Shown here: positions 18,201 to 45,795 of the stretch, piece by piece
Numbering within the stretch: position 1 is the first letter of the stretch
How the letters are laid out: each line of letters opens with the position of its first letter
Assembly: GCA_002414385.1 (NCBI GenBank)
Contig: DHZH01000002.1
Span: forward strand, 406,914-470,913
DNA: 64,000 nt
DNA from: Gammaproteobacteria bacterium UBA5109
GTDB lineage: Bacteria; Pseudomonadota; Gammaproteobacteria; Pseudomonadales; Pseudohongiellaceae
Direction of reading: 5' to 3'
Notes under the pieces: model-generated
Told to the model about the DNA's origin: nothing
Databases searched by the model: none
What the model saw: the letters and a program-made list of their open reading frames with translations, nothing else
Made by a program: the position numbers and the translations under genes

Positions 18201-18310
18201 TATCACCTTATCAAAAATATTAATTTTACTAAACAATGTTTTCTGGCTGAAAACAGTCTTTTTGTTTGTCTGTCTGTTTATGTTCTCGATCTTTGCTTGA
18301 ATAATGGCTG

Positions 18311-30682: not shown

Positions 30683-31680
30683 AGCAGTTTCGAGCCAAAC
30701 TGAATTTCACCATCCGGAATTTGCGGAACAGGTTCCTCGACAGGCGCTGATGTAGCAGCGCTGATATTGGTTTCCCAACTGTCTTCCGAGTATTCAGAAA
30801 TAGCCAGGAAAGCCAGCCGACCACTGTTATCTTCCGAGTAGGTGCCGACATAAATATCATACTCACCTGATTCGGGTGACGAGAAATAATATCCTCCGTT
30901 CAGGTTTTCCAGGCTGGAATTGTCATCATTGCAAAACCAGGAACCGCCGGGAGACTGAATGGAAATCGTCGTATCGTAGTCTGCACTGGTATAGATTCCC
31001 AACCCCAGACTACTGGTAGTACTGGGAGAATAATTAAGGCGATAAGTCGGTCCGTCACTAACATAACCGGCACAACCGTTACTTAAGTTATCTGCATCGT
31101 TGGGTCCACCAGCTACCACTTCAAAAACATAAGGATCAGGAAGGAACCCCCCGGACAGGCTGATTTCCGGGGAAGCTGCCTGTAAATCTGTTTCCCAGCT
31201 GCTTTCAGAAAACTCAGTGATTGCCAGAATCGCATTTCTGTTGGTATTGCTTTCTGAATAGGTTCCCACCCAGATGTCATACTGCCCGGATGCCGGGTCA
31301 CTGAAGTAATAGCCTGAATTCAGGTTATTCAGATCGCTGTGGTCATCATTACAATACCAGTCACCGTTAGGGTTATTGATCAGCAGGGTAGTATCGTATT
31401 CGGCATTGACATAAATACCCAGGCCGAGGCTGCCAGGGCTGAAATTCAAACGGTAAGTAGGTTCGTCAGTGATATAGCCATTACAGGAAGAATCAGCATC
31501 ATCGGCATCAAAGCTGCCCCCGGCCAGTACAGAAATGACGTTCGGGTCTGGAGTAAATCCGCCACTAAGTGATCCCGTTCCAAAACGCGGAGTGAGAGAA
31601 AAATCCTGGGCCATTGCCATAGAGCAAACAAAGGTACCAGTTGTAATAAGTAATAATCTGCTTTTATGAAAAGTCATCAC
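30679..31680 (-). CDS. Secreted protein made of two tandem ~140-aa PPC-like modules (island gene 8 of the minus operon)
   Basis: 333 aa with signal peptide [26 protein letters not shown]. Two internal repeats lie at roughly 31186..31608 and 30750..31185. Both share GGF.PDP....V.AGG..DA......C.GY..D.PTYRLN(F/Y)SP...LGLGIY...DYDTT..I..P.G.W.CNDD...L.NLN.GYYF..P.SG.YDI.VGTYSE. The start is 15 nt after the kinase stop. Confidence 0.75.
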
Positions 31681-31695
31681 TGAACCTCTATGGTC

Positions 31696-33702
31696 TTAAC
31701 GGGCAAGTCGAAAACCGGAGCTGGAACTGGCCTGAGTGGCCGGCATCCAGTTGCGGAAAGAAATTCGGCCCTGATGTTCACTGCTGTTCCAGCCACCACC
31801 GCGCAGTATTCGGCTGCAGCCACTTTCTCCGGTCCAGGCAGAACCATCATCCGGGGCACCGTTATAATTGTTACGAGCACAATCCTGTACCCATTCCCAG
31901 GCATTCCCGTGCATGTCAAACAGACCCCAGTCATTGGCAGGATAATTCATGACTTCCGCAGTACCGGCTTCACCACAGTTATTCATTTTTGCCAGGGCAC
32001 ACTGATGGGTATTACCCCAGTGATACTGAGCGGTGCTGCCGGCACGAGCAGCATATTCCCATTCGGCTTCTGTAGGGAGTCGATACCCGGCTCCGGTTTG
32101 ACCGTTAAGCCAGTCAATATAGGTTTGTACCTGATTCCAGTTGGCGTTGGTTACCGGCCGCAATTCCCTGCGCCCTGTACCCTGGTCATTGAGTTGGGCA
32201 CAAATACCAGCCTGCACACAGGAATCCCATTGCGCAAAAGTGACCTCATGTTCCATCAATTCAAAGTTATCGATGAATACTGTATGTACCGGTAGTTCAT
32301 CGCTGTCCCCGGTACCGGAGAGATCGCCCATATCAAAAAAACCGGAGGGGATGGAAATCATCTGGCCAAGATCAGCAATTGCCTGACTCAGTTGTTCCTG
32401 TTGCTGTTGTTGGCGCTGCTGGTTTTGTTGTTGCTGTTCCAGCCGCTCCTGTTCCAGTCTTTCCTGCTCGGCCTGTTCCGCTTCAGCCTGGAGTCTTTCC
32501 TGTTCGAGGCGCTCGGCTTCAGCCTGTTCCGCAACTTCCAGGGCAGCAGCAGCTTCTGCTGCAGCTTCCGCTGCAAGCTCTTCGGCACGCTGGCGCTCAG
32601 CTTCCGCCTGTAAACGCAATTCTTCGTTTTGCTGGTAAACCGTGAATCCGTAATAGCCTCCACCGGCAAGTATTATCAGCAATACTGCGGCAATGGCGTA
32701 CTTCCCGGCAGAGGATTGCTGTCCGGCAGGCTTGCTTACGGTGCTGGCTGCTGCTTTTTCCGGCTTTGCCTGTGGCGGGGGAGCAGATGCAGCAGCCTGT
32801 TCATTACCGTCAAGAAAACCGAGGACATCTTCGACAGACTGGAAGCGGTCTTCCTCATTAAGGCAGAGACATTTATCAATTGCCTTGAGTAAATTTTCTG
32901 AATATTTACCTTTGCCCAGTTCGAGCGCGGAAGTCATCGGGTCCGGCCGGTTACGGGTTACTGCACTCATGCGATTTTCTACCTGGGGCGGGTTCTGACT
33001 GGCGATAATGCGCCACATGACACCGCCAATGGCATAAATGTCAGTCCAGGGGCCGAGATTGCCGTCACTCTCTACCTGCTCAATAGCAGCATAGCCCGGA
33101 CTGTATGGCGCCATGGATTTACTGTGTTCGGTAAAATTCTGCTTGGCTGCACCGAAGTCGATTAATACCGGCTGTTCGTCGCTGCGGCGAATAAAAATAT
33201 TGCCCGGCTTGATATCGCGGTGCAGGACGTGCTGTTTATGTACAACACCGAGGCCTTTAAGCAAGGGAGTAATGATGCGACGCAGTTCATCTTCGGAAAA
33301 GCTCTGCTGGTTCTTTTCCCGGCCGCGAATCAGGTCCGATAGGGGCAGGCCATCTTCAAAGCTCATGACCAGGTAGGCTGTGCCGTTTTCTTCGATAAAG
33401 TCCTGGCAGTTAACAATGTTTGGATGATTTTCAAACTGTACCAGTTGCTTTGCTTCCGCCAGGAAGCGGTCAAGACCAGTCTGAAAATCGACCTGTTCAC
33501 GGGTACCAAGGGGGTGCACGGTACCGGATTCGCGTGTCGCCAGTTCCTGAGGCAGATATTCCTTGATTGCCAGCCAGTTTCCGAGGCGCATATGCTGGGC
33601 TTTATAGACAATGCCGAATCCGCCATAACCGAGCACGCTTTCGATACGGTATTGATTGATAACTGTGCCTTTCGGCAAGGCTAATCGATGTTCGGTATCC
33701 AT
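31696..33702 (-). CDS. Hanks-type Ser/Thr protein kinase, then TM, periplasmic coiled coil and FGE-sulfatase (SUMF1-type) domain
   Basis: 668 aa. Kinase motifs are GYGGFGIVY (aa 25-33), AIKE (K47), HRDIKPGN (aa 161-168), DFG (aa 182-184) and SPGYAAIEQ. The TM is YAIAAVLLIILAGGGYYGFTVY (aa 335-356). An E/Q/A/R-rich coil spans aa 357-445. The C-terminal domain (31699..32364) carries RLPTEAEWEYAARAG, GLFDMHGNAWEWVQD and RILRGGGW...SGFRLAR, typical of the FGE-sulfatase family. Confidence 0.9.
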   Translation of the reverse strand: MDTEHRLALPKGTVINQYRIESVLGYGGFGIVYKAQHMRLGNWLAIKEYLPQELATRESGTVHPLGTREQVDFQTGLDRFLAEAKQLVQFENHPNIVNCQDFIEENGTAYLVMSFEDGLPLSDLIRGREKNQQSFSEDELRRIITPLLKGLGVVHKQHVLHRDIKPGNIFIRRSDEQPVLIDFGAAKQNFTEHSKSMAPYSPGYAAIEQVESDGNLGPWTDIYAIGGVMWRIIASQNPPQVENRMSAVTRNRPDPMTSALELGKGKYSENLLKAIDKCLCLNEEDRFQSVEDVLGFLDGNEQAAASAPPPQAKPEKAAASTVSKPAGQQSSAGKYAIAAVLLIILAGGGYYGFTVYQQNEELRLQAEAERQRAEELAAEAAAEAAAALEVAEQAEAERLEQERLQAEAEQAEQERLEQERLEQQQQNQQRQQQQQEQLSQAIADLGQMISIPSGFFDMGDLSGTGDSDELPVHTVFIDNFELMEHEVTFAQWDSCVQAGICAQLNDQGTGRRELRPVTNANWNQVQTYIDWLNGQTGAGYRLPTEAEWEYAARAGSTAQYHWGNTHQCALAKMNNCGEAGTAEVMNYPANDWGLFDMHGNAWEWVQDCARNNYNGAPDDGSAWTGESGCSRILRGGGWNSSEHQGRISFRNWMPATQASSSSGFRLAR

Positions 33703-33767
33703 GATGCTTTCTGCAACCTGCCTCTTGTTTAACTGATTATATTGTCACATTTTTTAATTGTTACTAT

Positions 33768-34634
33768 TTAGATAGTTACAATGGCCATGATAATGCTCGC
33801 CAGCATGGACTGCCCGCTGGTGCTGTCAATAAATTCACCCTGACCACTTTGTGCCAGACGTCGTAAATATTCCTCAGCCTGATCACTGCCAACCATTACG
33901 GTGGACAGGTAATGTTCCGGGCTTGTGGTGGCGCTGAAATTCTGTGCGGTAGCAAAGGTTGTGTTCAGCAATTCCGGGTAGGCCGGCGCATCTGTCACTA
34001 CAATTATGTAGCGTCGCTGACTTTGCGGCCGCCAGTTCATTACTACGGCCTGATTGAGAGCAGCCGACAGGGCCTCCGGGTTGTCATCATTTGAGCCGCC
34101 ACCGAGACCCATATTGGCTTCCAGCTGATTGATGAAACTTTCAATCTGGGCAAAGTTGGTGGTCGGATATATCTGCTGGAAATTAAGCGGTTGATCCCAG
34201 AGTCGGTCGCCATACCAGACGATACCAATCCCGACTGACGGTGATAGACGGTCCAGCACTGTGGCCAGGTCGGCAATCTGCTGTTTCATCTGATCAATGT
34301 ATTCACCCATGCTGCCGGAAACATCCAGACAGATGACAATGTCCAGTTCGGGAATCCTGATGCGAGCCAGTTCAGAAGAAAGTTCACCGGCTTCCTGCTG
34401 AGACTGGGACAAATCACTTTGTGTCTGGGACAGTTCTTCCTGGGTTTGTTCCAGTTCCTGCTGTGCCTGTTCCAGCGCTTCGGCTACTTCCGCAACCAGT
34501 TCCGGGGAATCACCAGTGTTGGGGAAAAAGGGCAGGGCGGCAATTGTCAGCAACATAAAAGCACCCAGTGCCGAGGCAAACAGATCAAGTGCCGACATGC
34601 TGAAAATATTTATTTCGCGAGAGCGAATTTTCAC
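33768..34634 (-). CDS. vWA-domain protein with an N-terminal MotB/TolR/ExbD-like TM helix and a juxtamembrane coiled coil
   Basis: 288 aa. The N-terminus reads MKIRSREINIFSMSALDLFASALGAFMLLTIAALP, with basic residues and then a TM carrying Asp17. A Q/E-rich coil spans aa 43-90. The vWA MIDAS is DVSGSM (D104-S106-S108; nt 34311..34325), with a later VVTDAP. It overlaps the upstream gene stop by 4 nt. Confidence 0.85.
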   Translation of the reverse strand: MKIRSREINIFSMSALDLFASALGAFMLLTIAALPFFPNTGDSPELVAEVAEALEQAQQELEQTQEELSQTQSDLSQSQQEAGELSSELARIRIPELDIVICLDVSGSMGEYIDQMKQQIADLATVLDRLSPSVGIGIVWYGDRLWDQPLNFQQIYPTTNFAQIESFINQLEANMGLGGGSNDDNPEALSAALNQAVVMNWRPQSQRRYIIVVTDAPAYPELLNTTFATAQNFSATTSPEHYLSTVMVGSDQAEEYLRRLAQSGQGEFIDSTSGQSMLASIIMAIVTI

Positions 34635-36565
34635 TCCTGTTTCTCCAGCAGATTGACCTGATAGGTCACCAGGCCGACTTTAAGTGAATCTCCGGCATTC
34701 AGTTCATACTGCTGGCCGGGACTTAATACTGAGCCATTGATGGCGGTACCGTTGGCACTTTGCAGATCTTCAACATAAATTTTGTGATCCCGAACCATGA
34801 CGCGCAAATGTTTACGCGATACGGTTTCGATATTGAGTACATAGTCAGCATGTTGTGCCGAGCGACCGATAAGCTGACCGTTTTCTGACCGGATCAGCGC
34901 ATTACCGTTAATTTTCAGGCGTGACTCGGCGCCCTGTTCATCTTTGCCGAGTAAGACAATGTCGGGAAATTCAGCGGATGCCTTCTGTAGTTGTTCTTCA
35001 ATTTCCTGGCTCTGCTGCTTCACTTGCTGAATATTTTTTTCTGCTTCGTCCTGGCTTCGGCGACGTTTGCGGACCTGCATGACGACAAAGCCAAACAGGG
35101 CAATAACAACTATGCCAAAACCGCTCCACTGATACATGCGATTGCGCGCATCGACTTCTTGCTGGCGTGCTGCCTCTGCAAGCGCTTCTTCTCGTTCTTG
35201 TGCTTCCTGCTCGAGCTGTTCCTGTCTTTCCTGCAATTCAAGTTGTTCGGCTTCAGCCTGGGCAATGGCTTCCTGGCTGGCTTCAAGCTCCGCTTCCCGG
35301 GCCTGTAGTTCTTCCAGTCTTGCCTGATTTTCTGCCGCCAGTGCTTCCTGTTCGGCCAGTAATTCTTCTGTTGCTTCCTGGAGTCGCAGTCTTTCCTCTT
35401 CGAGAATTTCCTGTTCTTCAAACAAATCAATCAGAATTGCTTCCTGTTCCCTGATCTTGTCTTCTGCCAGTGCCAGAAGCTCGGCTTCTGACAGACAAAC
35501 ATCAAAGGCTTCATAGTAATCAACATTATTACTGGTCAGGAAAGTCCTGATACTGTCCAGGTTGGCACTGAATGCAAAATCCTGGTCTGGTCGCAAACGG
35601 TTGGAGAGCACCGGACTGGAATGCTGGCTGATACCGATCATTTCACCGCAATTATTTAACAGGGCAGCACCGTATTCCCCATCATCAGCCAGCGCGGTAT
35701 GACGAATCTGGCTTATGCCCTGATCAGTTTCAACAATACTCTGCAGGACACCCTGACGGTTTTCCTGCGCCAGGCCCAGAGCAATATTTCTGCCGGTTTC
35801 GGGGAAATCGTAGGATAGATTTATCGGACTGCCTTCAATACCGTTAACGGTTAACAATGCCAGACCGGCAGTTTCATCAGTGGCAGTAATACTGGCAACC
35901 AGAGAGGCACCATTCTGCGGGTTTTCGATAATCCACTGGTCACCCTGGGCGACCAGTGCTTCATTGGTAATAACCATATTATCTGTGACCAGGGTAGCCA
36001 GTCCGGTCTGCACTTCATTACCATTATTCAACACTCTCAGGCTGAAGATGTTGCTGGAAAAATTTGGCGAAAGGTCTATTTGCCAGTTGTCTTCGGGAGA
36101 TTCGGTGATAGCCAGAACCGCATCACCAAAAACATCTTCTTCAAAATAGGCACCTACCCAGATGTTGTATTCGCCGCTTTGCGGGTCATCAAAATAATAA
36201 CCGGCATTGAGATTTGCCAGGTTGTAATTATCATCATTACAGACCCACTCCCCGTCAGGAGTATTGATTAAAATTGTGGTATCCAGTTCCGAGCTTGTAT
36301 AAATTCCCAGCCCCCAGCCCGCGGCCTGGTAATCAAGGCGGTAATCAGGAGCATCAGAGATATAACCGTAGCAACTCGAATCTGCGTTGCCGGCATCAAG
36401 CTCGCCCCCAATGGCGACTTCAACAAGCTGTGGATCAGGCAGAAAACCGGCACTTAAATCGGTGCTGCCATAGTTAGGATCCATCCTGACATCCTGTGCA
36501 ACAGCCAGGCTACTTAAAACAGTGCCGCTTATCACAGTTAACACTATCAGTGGTCTAGTTTTCAT
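34631..36565 (-). CDS. Membrane-anchored protein: signal peptide, PPC-like module, degenerate trypsin-like domain, coiled coil, TM, cytoplasmic FHA
   Basis: I prefer the start MKTRPLIVLTVISGTVLSSLAVA-QD at 36565, which overlaps PP2C by 11 nt; the ORF-track start at 36682 would overlap it by 128 nt. The PPC-like module is ~36071..36496. The trypsin-2-like region has VITNEALV, ETAGLALLTV and GEYGAALLN. The E/Q/A coil is ~35140..35485 and the TM is WSGFGIVVIALFGFVVMQV. The FHA reads LIGRSAQHADYVLNIETVSRKHLRVMVRDHKIYVEDLQSANGTAINGSVL. Confidence 0.8.
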   Translation of the reverse strand: MKTRPLIVLTVISGTVLSSLAVAQDVRMDPNYGSTDLSAGFLPDPQLVEVAIGGELDAGNADSSCYGYISDAPDYRLDYQAAGWGLGIYTSSELDTTILINTPDGEWVCNDDNYNLANLNAGYYFDDPQSGEYNIWVGAYFEEDVFGDAVLAITESPEDNWQIDLSPNFSSNIFSLRVLNNGNEVQTGLATLVTDNMVITNEALVAQGDQWIIENPQNGASLVASITATDETAGLALLTVNGIEGSPINLSYDFPETGRNIALGLAQENRQGVLQSIVETDQGISQIRHTALADDGEYGAALLNNCGEMIGISQHSSPVLSNRLRPDQDFAFSANLDSIRTFLTSNNVDYYEAFDVCLSEAELLALAEDKIREQEAILIDLFEEQEILEEERLRLQEATEELLAEQEALAAENQARLEELQAREAELEASQEAIAQAEAEQLELQERQEQLEQEAQEREEALAEAARQQEVDARNRMYQWSGFGIVVIALFGFVVMQVRKRRRSQDEAEKNIQQVKQQSQEIEEQLQKASAEFPDIVLLGKDEQGAESRLKINGNALIRSENGQLIGRSAQHADYVLNIETVSRKHLRVMVRDHKIYVEDLQSANGTAINGSVLSPGQQYELNAGDSLKVGLVTYQVNLLEKQE

Positions 36566-37469
36566 CGCCCATGCTCTCATTATCTGCGTTTTCATCATTA
36601 TGCTCATCGGCATTATCTGAATCTGTCGGAGTTTCGTTATTGTTTTTGCCACGCAGGGTCTGTACATGAGCCTGGTCACCAAGAATGCGAATAATATTCA
36701 GGGTCGAGTTGTCCTGGGAAGGGCGCTGGTGCTCAGTGACTTTCTGTAAAATGATTTCGACCAGTTTTTCAGCATCACTCAAGGAATTCCCCTGTTCGGC
36801 AGCAAGCAGGCTCTGTAATTCTTCAACTGAGCAGGTTTCCACTCCATCACTGGCCAGGATAAATATATCACCTGCCTCTACACTGAATGTTTCATCAGGC
36901 AAATCAACCAGCTTGATGTCCCGGCCCAGGACTGCTTCCAGCAACTGGCTTCTTTCCGGCGAAGTTGCGGCTTCTTCAGCACTGATAAGACCTTGTTCCA
37001 CCTGTTTGGACAGTTCTTCGGCCATGGAGTGATTTTCATTAAGCCGGCTTAGCTTACCCTGACGATATAACCACAAGGGGCTGTCTCCGACGCTGATCCA
37101 TTGCACGGCATTGCCGTCAAAGATGAGAGCCAGAAAGGTAGAGCCCATGCCCTCCATTTCCGGGTTTTGTTTGACGTATTCGTAAACGGCCAGGTTTGCT
37201 GCACTCAGACCTTCCAGAAAACGGTCTTTGATTTCTTCTTTCTCTGAGGCAACAAAGCTTTCACGGAAAGTACTTACTACCAGCTGACTGGCTTCGGCAC
37301 CACCGACATGCCCGCCCATGCCATCGGCGAGAATATGCAGTGAAAAACCATTGGGCCAGCTGACGATAGCTGCCCGGTCCTGCTGGGATTTACGGCTGCC
37401 AATTATCTGACCCCAGGCTGAATCGGTGGTCAGGTTCGCAAGCTCTTTGGCACCCTCAGCAGCCATCAT
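36555..37469 (-). CDS. PP2C-family Ser/Thr phosphatase (soluble) with an acidic C-terminal tail
   Basis: 304 aa. Motifs are SRKSQQDRAAI, ILADGMGGHVGGAEAS, ILASDGV and QDNSTLNIIRI. The tail is rich in D/E/N. Confidence 0.9.
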   Translation of the reverse strand: MMAAEGAKELANLTTDSAWGQIIGSRKSQQDRAAIVSWPNGFSLHILADGMGGHVGGAEASQLVVSTFRESFVASEKEEIKDRFLEGLSAANLAVYEYVKQNPEMEGMGSTFLALIFDGNAVQWISVGDSPLWLYRQGKLSRLNENHSMAEELSKQVEQGLISAEEAATSPERSQLLEAVLGRDIKLVDLPDETFSVEAGDIFILASDGVETCSVEELQSLLAAEQGNSLSDAEKLVEIILQKVTEHQRPSQDNSTLNIIRILGDQAHVQTLRGKNNNETPTDSDNADEHNDENADNESMGDEN

Positions 37470-37477
37470 GCACCTGC

Positions 37478-38197
37478 TTATTCTTCATCCCAAGTGAAGT
37501 TTTCACCGCATAGCGGAACAAATAAAAGTGTGGTTTCACCCAGTGTGATACGGCTACCAGGGCTTAACTGGGCAGGAGCAAGCACCGGGCTGTTATTCAG
37601 GTAGGCCAGATTGGTACCGGAACCCTGCTGAATATAAAAGCTCAGGCCGCGCGGATCAAAAGTCAGAATGGCATGATTGGCACGGGAAATCTGCTCATCC
37701 CCGAAATCCAGTTTGACGCGTTCGGTTGGGCCACGGCCTATACTGTTCTGGCCGTTACCCAGCTTGAGATAATTGCCTTTTCCGGGACCGTCGATAACAA
37801 CCAGCCAGCCAACCACCGGATCGGCCATGGCATCAACCGGGCCGGACTGGGGTTCTTCCTGGGTATGGGGCTGCCGGGCTTTGCTGTGGCCTCCGGCTAT
37901 TACAGTAGCAGGCTCATCGCTTGCAGGAGCAGTTGATGATGCTGCCTGGGTTTCTTTCGAGCTGCCAGAGCTGTCTCCGGCTTTAACGGTAGGTGGCTCA
38001 TCAGCAAAAAGGCTGCCACCGGGAGACTGCTGATTGACTTCAGTTGGCGCATCGTCGTTATTGCCAGGACTTGATGTATTATCAAACAGGGAAGTCGGTG
38101 CTTCACTTCCTGCATTGCCTGACGACTGCTTGGATTTTTCATGCATGACGGACGGGACATCTACCGGTACACCGTCTGGGCCTCGTTTAACTGCCAT
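37478..38197 (-). CDS. FHA-domain protein with a long Ser/Thr/Pro-rich disordered N-terminal half
   Basis: 239 aa. The C-terminal FHA reads GWLVVIDGPGKGNYLKLGNGQNSIGRGPTERVKLDFGDEQISRANHAILTF...GTNLAYLNNSPV. The N-terminal ~130 aa are low complexity and S/T/P/A/G/D-rich. Confidence 0.85.
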   Translation of the reverse strand: MAVKRGPDGVPVDVPSVMHEKSKQSSGNAGSEAPTSLFDNTSSPGNNDDAPTEVNQQSPGGSLFADEPPTVKAGDSSGSSKETQAASSTAPASDEPATVIAGGHSKARQPHTQEEPQSGPVDAMADPVVGWLVVIDGPGKGNYLKLGNGQNSIGRGPTERVKLDFGDEQISRANHAILTFDPRGLSFYIQQGSGTNLAYLNNSPVLAPAQLSPGSRITLGETTLLFVPLCGENFTWDEE

Positions 38198-38223
38198 AAT
38201 GATCCTCCGGGAAAAATTTCAGT

Positions 38224-39039
38224 TTATTTTTCTTCATAAAGTCGGTTGATTAAATTATCCATACAATACTGGCCGGTGTTGTTGAGTGCGGATTCTTCCC
38301 GTCCCTGCGCCAGGTGCATAAAAAACACCAGAATTGCAGACATAACCAGCGCCAGCAGGGTCGTATTGAACGCCACACCAAGTTTGGTGGTAAGCACGCC
38401 CATCCAGACGCGAATTGCATCACTTTGTCCCAGGTCTGGCATATCGGATGCTTCCGACAATGACAGGGCGATACCGATAACTGTTCCGATAAAGCCGATA
38501 GTCGGAATCAGCCAGACCAGGTAACGAACCATGTTGTATTTCAGGTCGATCTCATGCTGCATCAACTCCAGACTGGAATTCATCAGGTTGTTGGACTGGT
38601 CTATGGACTGGCTGTTCTGGAACTGCAGAATAATACGGTGAATCAGCCGTGGCAGGAAAAAATAACGGGTATGCTTGTTATCAACCACTGAGCTGAAAAT
38701 CGGAACCAGCTCTTTGGCACGCAGCATTGTCGTATCATCTTCCGGCAACAGGCCGCGTTTGAGCTGGGCAATTTCTTTCTTGCCGCGGTCAAAACGGACC
38801 CAGAGTTCACCAAAGCCGATCATGAACAGCAGCCACATGATATTCTGGATGGTCAAGGGATAGGGGAAGACGTCTGTGGAGCGGTCGAAAAGAATATCTG
38901 CGAGTACCAGCTCTCCGACAACATCTTCAGACGGTGAGCTTATCAGTGACATGATGGCAATGAAAACCGCACCGATCATGATAGCAACCAGGGCAACAAT
39001 TACACGGTAGGTTGTTTCCTGTTGTTCAAGATTATTCAT
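38224..39039 (-). CDS. MotA/TolQ/ExbB-family proton-channel protein with no cognate MotB/ExbD/TolR gene adjacent
   Basis: 271 aa. It has two N-terminal TMs, a ~90-aa cytoplasmic loop, then the family signature LIPTIGFIGTVIGIALSL ... LGVAFNTTLLALVMSAILVFF. Confidence 0.85.
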   Translation of the reverse strand: MNNLEQQETTYRVIVALVAIMIGAVFIAIMSLISSPSEDVVGELVLADILFDRSTDVFPYPLTIQNIMWLLFMIGFGELWVRFDRGKKEIAQLKRGLLPEDDTTMLRAKELVPIFSSVVDNKHTRYFFLPRLIHRIILQFQNSQSIDQSNNLMNSSLELMQHEIDLKYNMVRYLVWLIPTIGFIGTVIGIALSLSEASDMPDLGQSDAIRVWMGVLTTKLGVAFNTTLLALVMSAILVFFMHLAQGREESALNNTGQYCMDNLINRLYEEK

Positions 39040-39100
39040 AGCTTAATTCCGCTTTCTCAGGCAACGAAAGGCTTTCCCTGGCTGCCGGACAAGTTATGGA

Positions 39101-39379
39101 TCAGTGCTTAATCGAATGCACCAGCTGCCGGACCTGAACTTCTTCTTTGCCGAGCAGCAGGATGTCACTTTCATTAACAAAGCCCTGTTTCATTAATTCC
39201 CAGGATTCGCCTTTCCTTATGCGGGTACCAGCTGTGGAATTAGCATCTATCAGGTAGTATTTGCCATCATCAGTACGTGTCAGCTCCAGATGTTTGCGGG
39301 AAACACTCTGGCCATTGATCTGGATATCAGCATCTGAAGCTCTACCGACTGAAAAAGTTCTGAATGACATGCATACCAC
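39101..39379 (-). CDS. Stand-alone FHA-domain protein, first gene of the minus operon
   Basis: 92 aa, with an alternative ATG at 39370 giving MSFRTF. The FHA motif reads FSVGRASDADIQINGQSVSRKHLELTRTDDGKYYLIDANSTAGTRI. Confidence 0.85.
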   Translation of the reverse strand: MVCMSFRTFSVGRASDADIQINGQSVSRKHLELTRTDDGKYYLIDANSTAGTRIRKGESWELMKQGFVNESDILLLGKEEVQVRQLVHSIKH

Positions 39380-39398
39380 CCTGAGTTTATGCAGACGC

Positions 39399-39414
39399 TT
39401 ATTCTATAGAATAA
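39399..39414. promoter_or_regulatory. Perfect 16-bp palindrome in the divergent promoter region of the island
   Basis: TTATTCTATAGAATAA is its own reverse complement. It lies 20-30 nt upstream of the FHA gene start and ~90 nt upstream of the PP2C-PepSY gene. Confidence 0.4.
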
Positions 39415-39505
39415 TTCGGGATTGCGCCAAATCTGCGACAGTTATATTTTCTGATAAAAAACTGGTGTTGAGGAAAGCCTGTAAAAGGGCTATCGTTAAC
39501 TTCCT

Positions 39506-41242
39506 TTGATTGGCCAGAAGAAGCAGCTAATGGCAGTTCTTGATAAGTGTTCTATCACTTGTTTTAGCCATATTGGGAACCGCGAAGAAAATCAGGATCG
39601 ATTTTGCGTTTTGCAGCATCCGCAAGGTAAGGCCATATTGTGCCTGGTTGCCGATGGTATGGGTGGTCACCGTGGCGGCGCACTGGCAGCACAGACTATT
39701 GTCGAGACCGCTGAAGCCCAGTGGCAGGAACACATTTCAGCAGACAGCCTTGATAATGATGCAGTCGAAGCATTCCTCAATCAGCTGATTACTGAAAGCC
39801 ACCAGGCAGTAAAAATGGCTGGTTTGGCTGAGGAAATTGAGCCCCGTTCCACAGTCGTTGCCCTTTACCTCTTTCATGACAAAGGCAGCATGCATGCCAT
39901 CTCCATTCATGCCGGAGACAGCCGTGCCGTGCAGTATTCTTCTTCTGGAAAAATAACCAGAACCATTGATCACTCCATGGCGCAGCTGAAAGTACTGCAA
40001 GGCAAAATAAGTGAAGAAGAAATGGCAACTGACCCTGATCAGGGCACTGTAATTTCAAATATTGGTGGTGAAGACGAGCCTGAGTCGGAAATTACTCACT
40101 GGAACCTGCAGCAGGGCAATTGTTTTACCATCTGCAGTGATGGCTTCTGGGAAATCTTTACTGATGAAGAAGTACTGGAATTATTTTCTCAGTTGCCGGA
40201 AGACAGAGAGATACAGCTGGAAAAAATATTTATCGAAAAAATCAAACAACTTCCCAAGCATGACAACACAACGGTTATAATGCTTGAAATTCCCGATAGC
40301 AAACCCGATAACAAAAAGGGTCCTTCCATGAGTGATACTGATAAACCTGATTCATCCACGCCGGATGTAGAAGATCCGGTAACCAATCCCGGCAAGACGG
40401 CGCCTGCCCCTGAGTCAGCCCCGCTTGGACAGGATGATGTTGCTGTCGGTACGGGCAACAATAACAAGAAACTGATTATCGGTATTGGCGTGGTAATCAT
40501 AGTCATTGCCCTGTTATTTGTGACACGTGGCGGCCAGGAGTCGGACGGGGAAAATGCTGGAGAAAATAGCGATGCGGGACAGGTAGCACAGGAGCAGGTG
40601 CCGGCTCCTGCACAGGAAGGGACAGAAGGGGCTGGTGAAGGAGAAGCAAATACTGAAGGAGGGGATGCTCCTGCACAGCCGGATGAAGTTGTGGCTGGTA
40701 ACGATGAGGGTGCAGCCGGCCAGGACAGGGTGCTTGACTCCCTGGAACTGGATACCGACATTTCGGTCAGCAGTGATGAAGAATTGGTCGCAGAAGTAAC
40801 CGATTTACTGGTGCTTACCGGCAGCCTTGGTCCGGATGATGCGTTGACGATCAGCAGTGAAGCCGAAGCCGGAGGCAACCGGATAATCCGTATGCAGCAA
40901 AGACATCAGGGCATCCCGGTGTTCGGCGGTGAGGTAATCGCTGTGGAAAACAATGGCAATGTCTTTAATGTCAGCGGCTCTACAGGTGCTGATATTGAAA
41001 TAGATGTCGAACCGGCCCTTACTTACGAACAGGCTCTGGAGATAGCCGGGGCGGCGCTGAACCAGGCACTTGGTTCCAGAAATGAAGACGCAGCACAACT
41101 GCTGATACTTGAAGTTGAAGATAATTATCATTTGGCCTGGTATAGCGTTCTGCTGATTGATGGCAGGGAAGAAAGGGTGTTTCTGGATGCCAATGATGGA
41201 TCGGTACTGTTACGACTGCCTACAGTGATAGGAGAGGCCTGA
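39506..41242 (+). CDS. PP2C Ser/Thr phosphatase, then TM, acidic linker and extracytoplasmic FTP/PepSY (M4-propeptide-like) domain
   Basis: 578 aa with a TTG start at 39506 and an alternative ATG at 39530. PP2C motifs are GNREENQDRFCV, LVADGMGGHRGGALAA, ICSDGFWE and HDNTTVIML. The TM is LIIGIGVVIIVIALLFV (aa 323-339, nt 40472..40522), followed by a D/E/G/A-rich linker. The FTP-like region reads RIIRMQQRHQGIPVFGGEVIAV. The PepSY-like region reads LTYEQALEIAGAAL...YHLAWYSVLLIDGREERVFLDANDGSVL (about 40838..41215). Confidence 0.85.
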   Translation: MIGQKKQLMAVLDKCSITCFSHIGNREENQDRFCVLQHPQGKAILCLVADGMGGHRGGALAAQTIVETAEAQWQEHISADSLDNDAVEAFLNQLITESHQAVKMAGLAEEIEPRSTVVALYLFHDKGSMHAISIHAGDSRAVQYSSSGKITRTIDHSMAQLKVLQGKISEEEMATDPDQGTVISNIGGEDEPESEITHWNLQQGNCFTICSDGFWEIFTDEEVLELFSQLPEDREIQLEKIFIEKIKQLPKHDNTTVIMLEIPDSKPDNKKGPSMSDTDKPDSSTPDVEDPVTNPGKTAPAPESAPLGQDDVAVGTGNNNKKLIIGIGVVIIVIALLFVTRGGQESDGENAGENSDAGQVAQEQVPAPAQEGTEGAGEGEANTEGGDAPAQPDEVVAGNDEGAAGQDRVLDSLELDTDISVSSDEELVAEVTDLLVLTGSLGPDDALTISSEAEAGGNRIIRMQQRHQGIPVFGGEVIAVENNGNVFNVSGSTGADIEIDVEPALTYEQALEIAGAALNQALGSRNEDAAQLLILEVEDNYHLAWYSVLLIDGREERVFLDANDGSVLLRLPTVIGEA

Positions 41243-43503
41243 TGAAAAAAACTTTACTAAGCCTTCTGCTATTTGCCGGTACTTTCTCAATTGGCGGCAA
41301 TGTCTACCCACAGGATAGTGAAGTTTTTTTTGATGGATTTGGCGAGAATACCCGGACTTTTTCCAGTGATGAAGAAATTATTCAGTGGCTCAGCACTGAC
41401 CTGCATGCCGAGTTGAACCTTGGTCCCGCCGACGAGTTAATGCTCAGTGAACAGAGTGCGAGCATTAACAATTTCAGCATTCATACCGTCCAGCAAAACC
41501 ATCAGGGCTATCCTGTCGTAGGGTTTCAGTCGCGCCTGATTCTGGATGCCCAGGGGAATCAGCTTGCCTTGCTCGGCCAGCATCAGGCTTTTCCGGAAGA
41601 CACACCCAGTGAGGCCAGTGTAAGTATAGAAGATGCAATTACAGCATCAGGCTTGAGTGATACATCTTTCAGTTCTGATACACCGGTATATATGGTTGTT
41701 GATGATGAATTAAGACTGAGCTGGCAGCTGGAAGGTAATTCCGATGGTGCCTCTGGCGCCACACAGGAAAGAATTTTTGTTGATGCACTCAATGGTGAAG
41801 TGATCGCCAGCTATCCGATGGTTTATACCGCCTTGATTCGCGAAGTCGGTGATATGGAAGCTGCCTGCAGGGCAGCAGGTATCACATTTCCCCTGGATCC
41901 GCAGTCAGCATTTGAAATTGAGCTGATGGTTGAGGAAGAACAGTACCATCGAAGTGAAGGTGAAGCATCCAGCGGGGCGGGCCATGTAGATGAACTTTAC
42001 GATACTCTTGGGGATGCCTATGAGTTTATGAGCAGTGTGCTGGGCATGGACAGTCTTGATGACAATGGGCTGCGACTAAAAGCCATTGCCGGAGTTCATT
42101 ATTTTCAGGGTGACCCATGGAATCAGTGTGTCGGTGACTCATTTAATGCCATGTGGAGTTCGCAGTGGAACGAGCTGTACATTCCTGAAGTTGCCATTCC
42201 CTTTATTGAAGTCGTTGCACATGAACTGGCCCACGGCATTGTTTCCAATGGCAGTGACCTGGTTTATGAGTTTGAATCTGGAGCCATGGATGAAGCCATA
42301 TCTGATGCCATCGGTGTGTCCTTCAGGGCCTGGCGTGATGCCGGTGGCCGTATGGGGTCAAGTCCGACCAATATCCCGACCTATCCTGCACTCTGGGAGT
42401 TACGCTCTGATACCGGCCCGCTGCGCAGCATGAGCAACCCGAAAAGCGTCAACAGCGGCTTGCCTGGAGGTTACCCGGATCACTACAACCAGTTTTTTGA
42501 TTTATCCATTGAGGAAGATCAGGGTGGGGTGCATATCAATTCATCCATCATTAATCAGGCTTTTTATATTCTGGTTGAGGGTGGTCAGCACCCGCGCCTG
42601 GGTACTGGCCCGAACGTGCAGGGAATTGGGATCGCCAATGCCAGCCAGATTTTCGCACTGGCCGGATCCCAGTTGCTAACTCCTTTTGCTGATTTTCAGG
42701 CAGGCCGCAACGCCTTTGCCCTGGCTGCAGAAATTCTGCACGGTAAACATTCCGAGATCTGGATTGCAGTTCATGAAGCCATGGATGCAGTAGGAATTCC
42801 GGGAAGCTGGCAACGACAGCCCCCCACACCACCACCGGTAATTCTGCCGACTCCGGTTCCGCAACCTGATCCGGCACCACCGTCGGCCCCTGATCCGGCT
42901 CCTGCTCCTGATACTCAGGCTCCGGATCCCGGCCCGGTTTCAACACCGGCACCGGGAAACCCACCACTGCCCAGTGAACCGCTTGTGCTAGAGAATAACA
43001 ATGCCCTGTATATAGGCCTGGGTATCGGATTCCTGGTCATTGCTTTCTTTGTCCTGAGCCGTTTACGTCCCCAATACAGTGCAAACGCGCCGGAATACCG
43101 GCGGGCATCAGCAGAACCGGCGCGACCGACACCTGCAACAGCTCCTGAACCACGGCTCAATCAGCAACAGATTGCAGTCAGCAGGGGAGCCAGTCTTGGC
43201 AAACTGGTCGGTTCCGGCACCAGTGCATCCATAGCGCTTGATGACTCATTACTGGCTTCACGTGAAGGACTGGTGATTGGTCGTTCGGCAAAACTGAACC
43301 ATGTTATTCTGGATGATTCCAGGGTTTCCCGACGGCACGCCCGCTTGCGCAAGGAAGGCCACCTGATTGTGCTTGAAGATCTGAATTCGACTCATGGCAC
43401 TGCAGTTAATGGCAAGAAGCTGCAGCCGTTTTCACAGGAAGTCATCCGGCAGGGTGACAGTGTGGAAATAGCTGGCATTAGATTTACCTGTGATCTGAGC
43501 TAA
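41242..43503 (+). CDS. Membrane-anchored M4 (thermolysin-family) metalloprotease with its own FTP/PepSY propeptide, Pro-rich linker, TM and cytoplasmic FHA
   Basis: 753 aa. The ATG overlaps the upstream stop (TGATG), and a signal peptide is present. The propeptide shows FSIHTVQQNHQGYPVVGF and LRLSWQL...IFVDALNGEVI. The zinc site is VVAHELAHGIV (HELAH at nt 42220..42234) plus ESGAMDEAISDAIG. GGVHINSSIINQAFYIL is close to thermolysin as I recall it. Then come the PPTPPPVILPTPVPQPDPAPP linker and the TM ALYIGLGIGFLVIAFFVLS (~43003..43062). The FHA reads LVIGRSAKLNHVILDDSRVSRRHARLRKEGHLIVLEDLNSTHGTAVNGKKL (~43265..43490). Confidence 0.9.
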   Translation: MKKTLLSLLLFAGTFSIGGNVYPQDSEVFFDGFGENTRTFSSDEEIIQWLSTDLHAELNLGPADELMLSEQSASINNFSIHTVQQNHQGYPVVGFQSRLILDAQGNQLALLGQHQAFPEDTPSEASVSIEDAITASGLSDTSFSSDTPVYMVVDDELRLSWQLEGNSDGASGATQERIFVDALNGEVIASYPMVYTALIREVGDMEAACRAAGITFPLDPQSAFEIELMVEEEQYHRSEGEASSGAGHVDELYDTLGDAYEFMSSVLGMDSLDDNGLRLKAIAGVHYFQGDPWNQCVGDSFNAMWSSQWNELYIPEVAIPFIEVVAHELAHGIVSNGSDLVYEFESGAMDEAISDAIGVSFRAWRDAGGRMGSSPTNIPTYPALWELRSDTGPLRSMSNPKSVNSGLPGGYPDHYNQFFDLSIEEDQGGVHINSSIINQAFYILVEGGQHPRLGTGPNVQGIGIANASQIFALAGSQLLTPFADFQAGRNAFALAAEILHGKHSEIWIAVHEAMDAVGIPGSWQRQPPTPPPVILPTPVPQPDPAPPSAPDPAPAPDTQAPDPGPVSTPAPGNPPLPSEPLVLENNNALYIGLGIGFLVIAFFVLSRLRPQYSANAPEYRRASAEPARPTPATAPEPRLNQQQIAVSRGASLGKLVGSGTSASIALDDSLLASREGLVIGRSAKLNHVILDDSRVSRRHARLRKEGHLIVLEDLNSTHGTAVNGKKLQPFSQEVIRQGDSVEIAGIRFTCDLS

Positions 43504-43566
43504 ACCCAGGTTTAAAATCCGGTATCACTCAGGCGATGCCAACAAATATTAAAATAAGGAAAGTAT

Positions 43567-44739
43567 ATGAGTGATACAAAGACTGCACGTAAATATCAGC
43601 ATTTTTCAATTTTCCTGCTGCTGGCACTTGCTGTCCTGGTTTTTTATATTGCCTTCATGCAAAGCACCGGTTCCGGTCTGGACTTTGGTGATGATAGTGG
43701 GGCACTTGCCATAAACGGTTCCTGTGAAGATATCCGTTTCCGTGGTCCGGGAATGGGAGATATGTCAGATGAGACTGGCAGCCTGAATGACGCCACTGAC
43801 TGCAGTACTTTATTTACCGAAGGGTCCATTTTTCTGGGCAGTGATGCCGCAGCCCTGGCATTGACTGCCATTAATTTTGGTGATGATGCGGGAACCTGGC
43901 CGGTTGATGGTGAGTGTGATGATCCACGCTTTGAAGGGGCCGGTGTTTCATTCAGTGCCGATAGCGACGAGATCATGCATGATGCAACTGACTGTCGCAA
44001 TTTGATGTTTCAGGGGCAGATTGCCTTCACCGGTGAACCGGAAGAATATATTCGTGACGGTATCGACTTTGGTGATAATTTCGGTACCTACGCTAATGAC
44101 AATGAATGCGATGATACCCGCTTCACCGGACCGGGGATGGCCGATGAAAGCACCTTCGAAGTCAGCAATATTCGCCATGATGCTGCAGACTGTTTAGCGC
44201 TTTATGATGAAGGCATGGTGGTATTGCAGGAAATGCAGATTATTGACGGTATAAATTTCGGAGATGACCAGGGGTCCTGGGCTAATGATGCTGAATGTGA
44301 TGATCCACGTTTTACTGGTGGAGGCACAGCGGAAACCCTGCTACAAGAAGATGCGATGCATGATGCAAGTGATTGTCGCAGTCTTTATCTGGCAGGGGGG
44401 ATAAGCTATATCGGCAACCCGGAAAACAGAATAATCGAAACCGGGGCGCTGGAAGTTACAGATGATCAAATAGAATCTGACAAGTACGTGGACGCCTATT
44501 CGTTTACAGGCACCCAGAATCAGCGGGTGGCTTTTGATCTGGTGTCCGATGAGTTTGATACTTATCTGATTGTCACTTCTCCGTCCGGAGAAGTTTTCGA
44601 GAATGACGATTTCGAGAGTGATACATCGCGTTCACTGATTTCAATGAGCCTGCCGGAAAGCGGCACCTATGCAATTCAGGTGACCAGCTACTCAAGCGAG
44701 TCATTCGGCACCTATACCCTGGAGATTAATGCTGAATAG
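43567..44739 (+). CDS. N-terminally anchored protein with four Cys/Asp-rich ~55-aa repeats and a C-terminal PPC-like domain
   Basis: 390 aa with the TM FSIFLLLALAVLVFYIAFM. Four repeats fit (L/I)(D/N)FGDD.G.W..D.ECDD.RF.G.G...(H/N)DA.DC..L (about 43678..44427). The C-terminal module (44428..44736) reads DAYSFTGTQNQRVAFDL...DTYLIVTSPSGEVFENDD...GTYAIQVTSY...GTYTLEI. Confidence 0.75.
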   Translation: MSDTKTARKYQHFSIFLLLALAVLVFYIAFMQSTGSGLDFGDDSGALAINGSCEDIRFRGPGMGDMSDETGSLNDATDCSTLFTEGSIFLGSDAAALALTAINFGDDAGTWPVDGECDDPRFEGAGVSFSADSDEIMHDATDCRNLMFQGQIAFTGEPEEYIRDGIDFGDNFGTYANDNECDDTRFTGPGMADESTFEVSNIRHDAADCLALYDEGMVVLQEMQIIDGINFGDDQGSWANDAECDDPRFTGGGTAETLLQEDAMHDASDCRSLYLAGGISYIGNPENRIIETGALEVTDDQIESDKYVDAYSFTGTQNQRVAFDLVSDEFDTYLIVTSPSGEVFENDDFESDTSRSLISMSLPESGTYAIQVTSYSSESFGTYTLEINAE

Positions 44740-44745
44740 GGTCAT

Positions 44746-44768
44746 CCCGGCCGGGGTGTGCAGCCGGG
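44746..44768. terminator. GC-rich inverted repeat between convergent genes; possible weak terminator
   Basis: CCCGGC-cggggtgtgca-GCCGGG sits in the 39-nt gap between the island's last plus-strand gene and korB. No T-run follows. Confidence 0.3.
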
Positions 44769-44778
44769 GAAGTCAGTT

Positions 44779-45795
44779 TCAGGCGACTTCCCAGGTATGC
44801 CCGCTGCGTAGCAGTGAATTGATATCGCCGTTGCCCCTGGCTTCCTTAACTTTAATACGCTGGTCAAACAGCGCATCGATATAGGCAGCTTTGGGCTGAT
44901 AATAAAGTACCCCGACAGCTACAGGGAAATCCTTACCACCCATTGCCGCTAGCAGATGAGCCTGTGCCTTGTTGCTTTCATCATGAACCAGCACTTCTTC
45001 CAGCGGGCAATCCTCACCGATAGTAACAACTTCCAGCGTAAGGTTTTCCCGGTTCAGGCGGATACCTTTATTGCTTTCCTTGCCAAAAACCAGTGGTTTC
45101 CCGTGTTCCACTTCAACCCGGAAGTCTGCTGCAATTTTCTTGTCCTTTACAGATTCAAAAATACCGTCATTGTAGATTGGGCAGTTCTGTAAAATTTCGA
45201 CAAAGGATGCACCCTTATGTTCATAGGCGCGGGTTATCACGGCGCTGAGATGTTTCATTTCTGTATCAATGGAGCGCGCAATAAAAGGTGCACCTGACCC
45301 TAATGCAATCCCGCAGGGGGACAGAGGTTCGTCAACTGATCCTTCCGGTGTTGAGGGTGAGCGTGTCCCGACTTTGGACGTCGGGGAATACTGCCCCTTG
45401 GTAAGACCATAGATCTCATTGTTGAACAACAGCATGGTCAAATCGACATTCCGACGCAGGGCATGCATGGTGTGATTGCCGCCAATACTCAGGGCATCGC
45501 CGTCTCCAGTAATAACCCATACGTCGAGTTCTGGATTGGCAAGTTTCACACCGGTGGCAATTGAAGGTGCGCGACCATGAATAGTATGGAAGCCGTAGGT
45601 GTTCATGTAATACGGGAAGCGCGATGAACAGCCAATGCCTGAGACAAATACCTGGTTCTCTTTTGGCTGGTCCAGTTCCGGCATCAGCTTCTGAATTGTT
45701 TTCAGAATGGCATAATCACCGCAACCCGGGCACCAACGAACTTCCTGGTCAGAGCTGTAGTCCTTAATAGTAAGTTTTTCGACTGCCTGGTTCAT
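44779..45795 (-). CDS. korB: 2-oxoglutarate/2-oxoacid:ferredoxin oxidoreductase beta subunit (TPP-binding)
   Basis: 338 aa. Motifs are RWCPGCGDYAIL, the TPP-binding GIGCSSRFPYY, and GDGDALSIGGNH. Confidence 0.88.
   Translation of the reverse strand: MNQAVEKLTIKDYSSDQEVRWCPGCGDYAILKTIQKLMPELDQPKENQVFVSGIGCSSRFPYYMNTYGFHTIHGRAPSIATGVKLANPELDVWVITGDGDALSIGGNHTMHALRRNVDLTMLLFNNEIYGLTKGQYSPTSKVGTRSPSTPEGSVDEPLSPCGIALGSGAPFIARSIDTEMKHLSAVITRAYEHKGASFVEILQNCPIYNDGIFESVKDKKIAADFRVEVEHGKPLVFGKESNKGIRLNRENLTLEVVTIGEDCPLEEVLVHDESNKAQAHLLAAMGGKDFPVAVGVLYYQPKAAYIDALFDQRIKVKEARGNGDINSLLRSGHTWEVA

Follow-up and report, generated by a model that had tools for sequence, protein, structure and literature searches.

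The stretch of DNA considered here (the window: 64,000 nucleotides of contig DHZH01000002.1 of Gammaproteobacteria bacterium UBA5109, an uncultured marine gammaproteobacterium represented by a metagenome-assembled genome, MAG) contains two adjacent forward-strand genes whose products, both labelled "hypothetical protein" in the record, are probably partners. Gene 1 (39530–41242) encodes a PP2C phosphatase followed by a transmembrane (TM) helix, an acidic linker and a prodomain of the M4 protease type (FTP plus PepSY), and gene 2 (41242–43503, 753 residues) encodes a signal peptide, a divergent prodomain-like region, an M4 catalytic domain, a Pro-rich linker, a TM helix and an FHA domain. In the proposed partnership, which is favoured on comparative evidence, the prodomain carried by the phosphatase would sit on the M4 domain of the protease. 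The parts are all of known kinds, and it is their combination that appears undescribed, i.e., a phosphatase whose ectodomain is a protease prodomain, a tethered M4 protease with an FHA domain, and the repeated fusion of the two; no curated family (NCBIfam), defence-system model (PADLOC) or publication was found, in the literature searched, for these architectures or for the genes around them. Both open reading frames (ORFs), and all the motifs quoted for them in a first-pass annotation made from the letters of this DNA, are present in the translations. That annotation had treated the pair as self-contained; it is instead one module of a conserved cluster of 10–11 genes for Ser/Thr kinase, PP2C and FHA proteins (window 30679–44739, both strands), which includes a second tethered protease of the design trypsin-TM-FHA.

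The two proteins

The extracytoplasmic region of gene 1 that resembles M4 prodomains covers residues 426–578 (40781–41239, forward strand), with FTP at 457–492 and PepSY at 505–568. FTP (PF07504) was detected in the full-length protein with an E value of 8e-9 (35.6 bits against a cut-off of 21) and scored 38 bits with the ectodomain alone, and PepSY (PF03413) reached 20.0 bits in the full-length search, below its cut-off of 24, and a borderline 24.4 with the ectodomain alone; both domains had been read from the sequence, and hidden Markov models (HMMs) support the first and, narrowly, the second. A profile built from 21 PP2C ectodomains of this family, in 20 of which FTP was detected, matched the propeptides of prepro-thermolysin (5a3y_A residues 78–220, 1.6e-12), of vibriolysin MCP-02 (3nqy_A residues 38–176, 2e-10) and of pro-LasB (8cr3_A residues 52–193, 2e-8), and the ectodomain HMM also matched the propeptides of 37 ordinary M4 ORFs, including Bacillus-type enzymes in the fetched loci. 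Because it outscored the HMM of gene 2's own pro-region on 30 of the 32 ordinary M4 propeptides matched by both, the phosphatase-borne prodomain is regarded as the more canonical copy.

The C-terminus of gene 1 (…LLRLPTVIGEA) aligns with the junction between prodomain and mature enzyme in gene 2, where …VIASYPMVYTA is followed, on the mature side, by LIREVGDMEAAC…. This junction is a loop of low predicted local distance difference test score (pLDDT) in both AlphaFold2 (AF2) models, i.e., that of gene 2 and that of P0029, a homologue in which the two proteins are fused. Judged from these alignments, the ectodomain is a complete M4 prodomain (FTP plus PepSY) ending at the usual position of prodomain cleavage, and would therefore amount to a prodomain that is already cleaved and is held on a membrane anchor. 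A single-sequence phmmer search overlooked the ectodomain in the group of Aliiglaciecola, Idiomarina and Marinobacter, where the family HMM found it (1e-4 to 1e-12).

The PP2C (PPM) catalytic domain of gene 1, which is predicted to be cytoplasmic (residues 21–260, 39566–40285), matched PP2C_2 of Pfam over residues 21–227 with an E value of 1.5e-15 (57.8 bits, cut-off 24). The motifs ADGMGGH, SDGFWE and DNTTV were located at residues 49–55, 211–216 and 253–257, and the metal-binding residues D31, D50–G51, D138, D212–G213 and D253–N254 are kept in 33–36 of 36 PP2C-prodomain sequences, D31, D50, D212 and D253 being the metal-coordinating aspartates of PP2C motifs 1, 2, 8 and 11. The domain looks intact and is predicted to be an active phosphatase. 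Its counterpart in the P0029 model gave Foldseek matches to PstP (1txo) and Stp1 at about 1e-12, and also to PppA (6jkv), and the Stp1/IreP equivalog NF033484 of NCBIfam scored 121.8 bits against gene 1 with a cut-off of 230, by which gene 1 would be a relative of that equivalog standing outside it. Homologous clusters with PP2C_2(+FTP) number about 45. The single TM helix (residues 322–340, 40469–40525) has a Kyte-Doolittle value of 2.86 in a 19-residue window, corresponds to helix 361–383 in the P0029 model and is directly followed by a very acidic linker, as the first-pass annotation had described. Hydropathy places the PP2C domain inside the membrane and the prodomain region outside it.

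Gene 1 is 570 residues long from the ATG at 39530, where database gene calls place its start, and 578 residues from the TTG at 39506; the mechanical ORF start is probably too far upstream, as is that of the trypsin-TM-FHA gene described below (36682 instead of about 36565). The stop codon of gene 1 overlaps the start codon of gene 2 in the sequence TGATG (41240–41244, forward strand), an overlap already recognised at first reading, and a Shine-Dalgarno sequence (GGAGAGG) lies just 5′ of it, from which translational coupling of the two genes is predicted. Overlaps of −1 or −4 nucleotides, or gaps of a few bases, are also seen in relatives. A scan of 39000–44900 for promoters and terminators gave counts equal to those of shuffled controls and was uninformative.

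The catalytic domain of gene 2 (residues 200–521, 41839–42804, forward strand) matched Peptidase_M4_C of Pfam at 3.9e-32 (111.9 bits, cut-off 24.4), and the N-lobe model Peptidase_M4 scored 21.3 bits, just under its cut-off of 22.4. It resembles thermolysin by sequence (4m65_A, 4.4e-26), and the AF2 model of gene 2 matched the neutral protease/thermolysin structure 1esp in Foldseek (5e-19). The motifs on which a thermolysin-type enzyme had been proposed are HELAH (327–331), ESGAMDEAISD (345–355) and GGVHINSS (428–435), and the proposal gains from conservation, the zinc ligands and catalytic residues H327, E328, H331, E351 and H431 being invariant, and D426 conserved at ≥90%, in 28 full-length M4-FHA sequences. 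Gene 2 is thus predicted to be an active two-lobe protease of the M4 family with its catalytic residues intact. Two cysteines, Cys209 and Cys296 (window 41866–41868 and 42127–42129), are likewise invariant in all 28 sequences and could form a periplasmic disulfide.

The pro-region of gene 2 (residues 40–192, 41359–41817) had been described as an FTP/PepSY propeptide of its own. As a Pfam assignment this did not hold, the N-terminal 199 residues matching neither FTP nor PepSY even at E ≤ 10; as a statement of homology it stands, on three kinds of comparison. BLASTP aligned the pro-region with the ectodomain of gene 1 at 28% identity over 137 residues (E 3e-8), hhalign aligned the two families over 143 columns with a probability of 99.4% (E 2e-21), and the pro-region of the AF2 model matched the separate propeptide chains of autoprocessed vibriolysin MCP-02, 3nqz_A (5e-8) and 3nqy_A (1e-7), in Foldseek. 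The pro-region is a divergent paralogue of the gene 1 ectodomain. The mean pLDDT of the gene 2 model is 78.4, with values mostly of 80–93 in the pro-region that drop to 64–70 over residues 161–180.

Beyond the catalytic domain, a Pro-rich periplasmic stalk (523–587) leads to a TM helix (588–606; stalk and helix together 42808–43059) with a Kyte-Doolittle value of 2.41, which appears as helix 588–607 in the AF2 model. Four Lys/Arg residues lie C-terminal of this helix and the protein begins with a signal peptide, and therefore the protease is predicted to be outside and the FHA domain in the cytoplasm; together with the hydropathy of gene 1, this agrees with the topology first suggested, in which prodomain and protease face each other on the outer side. 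A C-terminal TM helix followed by FHA departs from one trait of M4 enzymes, that of being soluble and secreted. The FHA domain itself (678–743, 43273–43470), also claimed from the start, matched Pfam at 9e-17 (61.7 bits, cut-off 20.7), and its phosphothreonine-binding residues G680, R681, S696, R697 and H699 are invariant in the 28 M4-FHA sequences. Foldseek matched it to FhaA (3poa), DgcB, EmbR and OdhI at about 1e-6, with target-normalised TM-scores of about 0.8 for FhaA and DgcB and of 0.24 for the longer EmbR chain. By sequence it resembles FhaA (TB39.8) of Mycobacterium tuberculosis (1.6e-8), and the FhaB/FipA model of NCBIfam remained below threshold (48.7 bits, cut-off 125).

Pairing and natural variants

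Proteins that combine M4_C with FHA form 38 clusters at 90% identity in a collection of 5.8 billion proteins, and an exhaustive search of 1.84 billion representatives at 50% identity found about 60–75 M4 representatives with an FHA tail, below which the matches were ordinary secreted M4 proteases with PKD, PPC or F5/8 tails. A survey with one genome per species yielded about 42 loci, which belong in the Gammaproteobacteria to a SAR86-like clade, Alteromonas, Aliiglaciecola, Idiomarina/Pseudidiomarina, Halioxenophilus, Cellvibrionaceae, Marinobacter, Ketobacter and Ca. Rariloculaceae, and in the Acidobacteriota to Bryobacterales and Terriglobia. The PP2C-prodomain gene stands directly 5′ of M4-FHA in about 33 of the 41 M4-FHA genes, often with an overlap of 1–4 nucleotides, and another three are complete single-chain fusions (a fourth fusion, in L039, runs off the end of its contig and was left uncounted). 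Three more PP2C-prodomain homologues, picked independently from the side of the phosphatase, are each followed by M4-FHA. No PP2C, FHA or kinase gene was found within 10 kb of an ordinary M4 gene in 36 control loci. The PP2C-prodomain and M4-FHA proteins are co-inherited across two phyla, and the association read from this one genome recurs almost without exception in others.

The pair occurs in four natural forms. The double form, that of the window, consists of PP2C-TM-prodomain and signal peptide-prodomain-M4-TM-FHA. In the trans-only form (L026, L027, L030, L035), the signal peptide leads straight into the M4 catalytic domain and the sole prodomain is that on the PP2C protein. In the anchored form (L033, L043), a 240-residue gene for a TM-anchored prodomain and nothing else lies 5′ of an M4-FHA gene that has no prodomain, and the PP2C gene sits elsewhere in the cluster; together with the four trans-only loci, these are the cases in which M4-FHA has no prodomain of its own at all. 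In the fused form (P0029/L001, L023, L025, L039, P0338, P0349), a single chain of 1028–1159 residues reads PP2C-TM-FTP/PepSY-M4-TM-FHA, with the joint exactly at the end of PepSY and with neither a signal peptide nor a second prodomain. The AF2 model of the P0029 fusion has a mean pLDDT of 82.5, every domain confident and two TM helices, its Foldseek matches include thermolysin-type enzymes as well as PstP, Stp1 and PppA, and it fits an in-out-in topology. That the fusions are frameshift or assembly artefacts was considered and rejected, since about 200 residues (the signal peptide and second prodomain) are absent from them and they come from several unrelated assemblies.

In a rough neighbour-joining tree of the catalytic domains, drawn without support values, the M4-FHA family was monophyletic relative to Bacillus M4 enzymes and the double form was widespread, with fusion arising at least two times and the protease's own prodomain being lost at least three further times. 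These variants are the weightiest evidence for the partnership: fused and trans-only forms are to be expected if the PP2C-borne prodomain binds and services the M4 domain, and are hard to explain if it is an unrelated sensor. The periplasmic interaction of prodomain and protease that had been suggested for the pair in the window thus appears strongly supported by comparison, through the fusions at the junction and the M4-FHA proteins whose only prodomain is borne by PP2C.

Outside this family, stand-alone prodomain-like ORFs of 230–260 residues were seen directly 5′ of ordinary M4 genes of more than 1100 residues in a Binatia MAG (L077, 7941–8729) and a Thiotrichaceae MAG (L079, 8639–9337). 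Separately encoded M4 prodomains may be more general than the PP2C/M4-FHA family.

A possible split zymogen and its competitors

The FTP and PepSY prodomains of M4 proteases serve as chaperones and inhibitors and remain attached to the enzyme once it has processed itself (PMC13556211; also PMC5078317). Thermolysin, LasB (pseudolysin) and vibriolysin MCP-02 share the HExxH...E domain and the two-lobe fold with gene 2, and their propeptides align end to end with the ectodomain of gene 1; they are soluble, secreted and carry the prodomain in cis, whereas gene 2 is TM-anchored with a cytoplasmic FHA domain and an extra prodomain is found on a separate membrane protein with a cytoplasmic PP2C. A precedent for the separate arrangement is YpeB, a co-transcribed, separately encoded and membrane-anchored PepSY protein that has been proposed to fold SleB and keep it inactive (PMC13556211). 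As with genes 1 and 2, YpeB–SleB of Bacillus spores comprises a membrane PepSY chaperone-inhibitor encoded beside its extracytoplasmic hydrolase client, but SleB, the client, is a lytic transglycosylase with neither TM helix nor FHA, YpeB lacks an enzyme domain on the cytoplasmic side, and there is no kinase or phosphatase context.

On this basis it is proposed that the PP2C-borne prodomain would bind the M4 catalytic domain in the periplasm and act on it in trans as both chaperone and inhibitor, the pair then being an M4 zymogen of two chains, tethered to the membrane and connected to Ser/Thr phospho-signalling. The transmembrane heterodimer would set PP2C beside FHA on the cytoplasmic face, where the FHA domain would dock on phosphothreonines made by the kinase of the cluster and so target the phosphatase there. 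Loss of the prodomain, through release or degradation, would switch the protease on and at the same time separate PP2C from FHA; alternatively, clustering or assembly that depends on phosphorylation might regulate the protease from the cytoplasmic side. As for the direction of signalling, outside-in or inside-out, either choice deserves far less confidence than the partnership itself, and it is as a matter of reasoning from architecture that we infer, with the first-pass annotation, a read-out in the cytoplasm by PP2C and FHA. The whole reading, i.e., a split zymogen in which the inhibitor chain is a phosphatase and the enzyme chain a phosphothreonine reader, with the state of the periplasmic protease reciprocally coupled to cytoplasmic Ser/Thr phosphorylation, is given a probability of roughly one in three. 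It would, in that same tentative reading, work within a widespread and uncharacterised kinase/PP2C/FHA/MotA-ExbB envelope system of marine Gammaproteobacteria and soil Acidobacteriota, which would also use the trypsin-TM-FHA protease and, in some genomes, FHA-gated ABC transporters.

Several observations weigh against this proposal. Gene 2 of the window retains a prodomain-like region of its own, so that folding here does not strictly depend on the PP2C-borne copy. One locus (L016) has a PP2C without ectodomain and another (L017) an M4-FHA gene without adjacent PP2C, the remaining unpaired M4-FHA cases being contig edges or gaps. A conserved Thr motif was sought in the cytoplasmic linkers, where no column reaches 90% conservation. 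The roughness of the tree from which repeated fusion and loss were read counts on the same side.

The competitor that survives best makes the ectodomain a substrate of the protease instead of its inhibitor. The M4 enzyme would then cleave the PP2C ectodomain in the way in which site-1 proteases cleave anti-sigma factors, so that the phosphatase is degraded or set free, and the fold of the prodomain would serve only as bait. The eventual fate of M4 prodomains is indeed degradation, by the enzyme to which they belong or by another protease (PMC5078317, PMC13556211), the pairing of the genes suits this explanation equally well, and the trypsin-TM-FHA protease, as the second one of the cluster, might take part in a cascade. 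Judging by the fused and trans-only variants, the ectodomain would take the place of the prodomain in folding or latency as well, and cleavage as the whole explanation is considered rather unlikely; it is compatible with the split zymogen, of which it may describe the activation step.

Much less probable is that the FTP/PepSY region serves the phosphatase as a generic sensor or ligand-binding domain, the adjacency of its gene to the M4 gene reflecting shared regulation only. In unrelated proteins, PepSY-like domains are found as extracellular modules that bind ligands (PMC12419801). The mycobacterial phosphatase PstP has the PP2C-TM-ectodomain architecture, shares its operon with genes for FHA proteins and transmembrane Hanks kinases, and has an ectodomain to which no function has been assigned (PMC3052367). 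PstP, in its setting with FhaA, FhaB (FipA), PknA and PknB, is like gene 1 in architecture and in PP2C fold (1txo), and the mycobacterial operon differs in having no protease, in belonging to another phylum and in its partners RodA and PbpA, where here MotA-ExbB, VWA and trypsin proteins are found. No homology between the PstP ectodomain and M4 prodomains is known to us. A free-standing sensor is difficult to reconcile with an ectodomain that spans a whole M4 prodomain and is nearer to canonical M4 propeptides than the pro-region of gene 2, with independent fusions joined exactly at the processing junction and repeated loss of the protease's own prodomain, or with the lack of PP2C genes near ordinary M4 genes in the 36 control loci.

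Slightly less plausible still is a role in conflict with phages, in which the whole kinase/PP2C/FHA/protease cluster would be a defence-island module with the tethered proteases as effectors. In L001, a Tara scaffold (3985–6033, 16461–19351), AAA_15/DUF4276 pairs and DndB, which are typical of defence islands, lie among the genes of the cluster that carries the fusion; the kinase is generically like PADLOC defence kinases, and the MotA-like neighbour is weakly like ZorA (3.8e-6). Against this, PADLOC 2.0 has no system model for the pair or for the FHA, trypsin and VWA proteins, its only matches besides the weak one to ZorA being to a generic PP2C (PDC-M21C) and a kinase, the cluster of the window lies between dxs/ispA and 2-oxoacid:ferredoxin oxidoreductase genes with a composition that is not atypical, and the proteases face the periplasm and not the cytoplasm. 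The weakest idea, that at least one enzymatic domain is a pseudoenzyme and the pair only a scaffold for FHA-phosphothreonine complexes at the membrane, could draw on the Peptidase_M4 N-lobe score just under cut-off and on the Stp1 and thermolysin equivalogs of NCBIfam, which remained far below their cut-offs with no equivalog assigned to the pair, and is very improbable given M4 zinc and catalytic residues and PP2C metal aspartates that vary hardly or not at all between members of two phyla and folds that match active enzymes.

Other systems join PP2C and FHA functions without a membrane protease. In plants, the FHA domain of KAPP directs a PP2C to phosphorylated kinases. The Deinococcus protein DRA0334 is an FHA-directed PP2C in a VWA-kinase-FHA-PP2C operon, in which an FHA domain targets the phosphatase to phosphorylated kinases (bioRxiv 10.64898/2026.01.23.701218). 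The targeting of PP2C proposed for the pair would follow the principle of these two. The fused variants of the PP2C/M4-FHA family put PP2C and FHA in one chain. KAPP and DRA0334 have neither the protease nor the membrane topology, and in the window PP2C and FHA are on separate chains, which would be joined only through the proposed extracytoplasmic contact of prodomain and protease. The threonine-phosphorylation pathway of the type VI secretion system (T6SS), PpkA-PppA-Fha1/TagH, shares kinase, PP2C, FHA and VWA components with the cluster, and the PP2C fold matches PppA (6jkv), but the pathway has no proteases and no MotA/ExbB protein; TagH (TIGR03354) scored 25.8 with a cut-off of 120.25, and no T6SS components were found among the cluster genes.

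How bacterial Hanks-type kinases, PP2Cs and FHA proteins are linked to events outside the membrane is in general poorly understood, and the same holds for the function of the ectodomains that PstP and other membrane PP2Cs carry. The ectodomain of gene 1 comes with an identifiable candidate partner and a well-studied activity, the inhibition of M4 enzymes by their prodomains, and the pairing suggests that extracytoplasmic protease activity is linked to cytoplasmic protein phosphorylation, which is directly testable with the natural fused, split and reduced versions. If true, the trans-acting, membrane-anchored PepSY chaperone-inhibitor exemplified by YpeB–SleB would extend to the original class of clients, the M4 proteases, and these enzymes, usually seen as secreted degradative enzymes or virulence factors, could be parts of membrane signalling complexes. 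Experiments are feasible in cultured carriers, among them Alteromonas stellipolaris, Alteromonas lipotrueae, Aliiglaciecola lipolytica E3, Halioxenophilus, Ketobacter and Pseudidiomarina mangrovi.

The kinase, PP2C and FHA cluster

The pair forms one end of the cluster, and most of the other genes lie on the reverse strand. Divergent from gene 1 is a gene for a small FHA protein of 92 residues (39101–39379; FHA 8e-14), present in most related loci, followed by that for a MotA/ExbB-like protein with three TM helices (38224–39039; Pfam 3e-11). The latter is the best conserved member of the cluster (phmmer E 1e-80 to 1e-166 across loci), belongs to a family of 1713 clusters at E<1e-10 that is far larger than the M4-FHA family, and has no ExbD/MotB-type partner in the cluster. 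Next come, each of them conserved and on the reverse strand, an FHA protein of 239 residues with a disordered S/T/P-rich N-terminus (37478–38197; FHA 7e-9), a second and soluble PP2C of 304 residues (36555–37469; PP2C_2 8.6e-13), the trypsin-TM-FHA protease (34631–36565, the ORF extending to 36682; Trypsin_2 3.5e-6, FHA 8e-15) and a VWA-domain protein with an N-terminal hydrophobic segment (33768–34634; VWA_2 4.9e-12). The trypsin-TM-FHA protein is built to the design of gene 2, with a signal peptide, an N-domain, a trypsin-like protease domain, a coiled coil, a TM helix and FHA, and its translation probably starts near M40, just before the signal peptide.

The kinase of the cluster (31696–33702, reverse strand) is a Hanks-type Ser/Thr kinase (Pkinase 1.2e-37) with a TM helix (331–349) and an ectodomain resembling FGE-sulfatase (6.3e-48). 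Beyond it lies a gene for a secreted protein of 333 residues (30679–31680, reverse strand), which consists of two tandem copies of the N-terminal domain (about 130 residues) of the trypsin-TM-FHA protein (BLASTP 52–54%, E 1e-57 and 9e-44) and which also adjoins the kinase in L002 and L003. It is a second case in this cluster of the N-terminal domain of a tethered protease being duplicated onto a separate protein. On the other side of the pair, on the forward strand, a membrane-anchored periplasmic protein of 390 residues is encoded (43567–44739; TM helix 13–31), with four Cys-containing repeats (FGDDxGxWxxDxECDDPRFxGxG ... HDAxDCxxL) and a C-terminal PPC domain (4.3e-6). PPC domains are usually found at the C-terminus of secreted proteases, M4 enzymes included; this gene is conserved in the closest clade only (L002–L005).

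The core of the cluster is kept in nearly all related loci, in Gammaproteobacteria and Acidobacteriota. At least one relative, L081, has the core but no M4 pair and contains two trypsin-TM-FHA genes, a kinase-FHA fusion, MotA/ExbB, two PP2Cs and a kinase-FGE gene; the M4 pair is therefore an optional module, and the protease-TM-FHA modules appear interchangeable. The position next after M4-FHA is occupied in Ketobacter (L080, 2866–5301) by an FHA-FHA-ABC transporter of about 811 residues, as identified with Pfam, and in two Alteromonas loci (L008, 12228–14672; L028, 12409–14940) by FHA-bearing proteins of 814–843 residues that are probably FHA-FHA-ABC transporters too. We take this design to be that of M. 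tuberculosis Rv1747.

The M4-FHA module is present in two to three copies in some genomes, with L011, L017 and L042 on one Bryobacterales chromosome and L023 and L025 on one Rariloculaceae chromosome, and arrays of three to five transmembrane Ser/Thr kinases adjoin M4-FHA in many genomes; L007, L016, L020 and L040–41 are also listed among the loci with multiple copies or kinase arrays.

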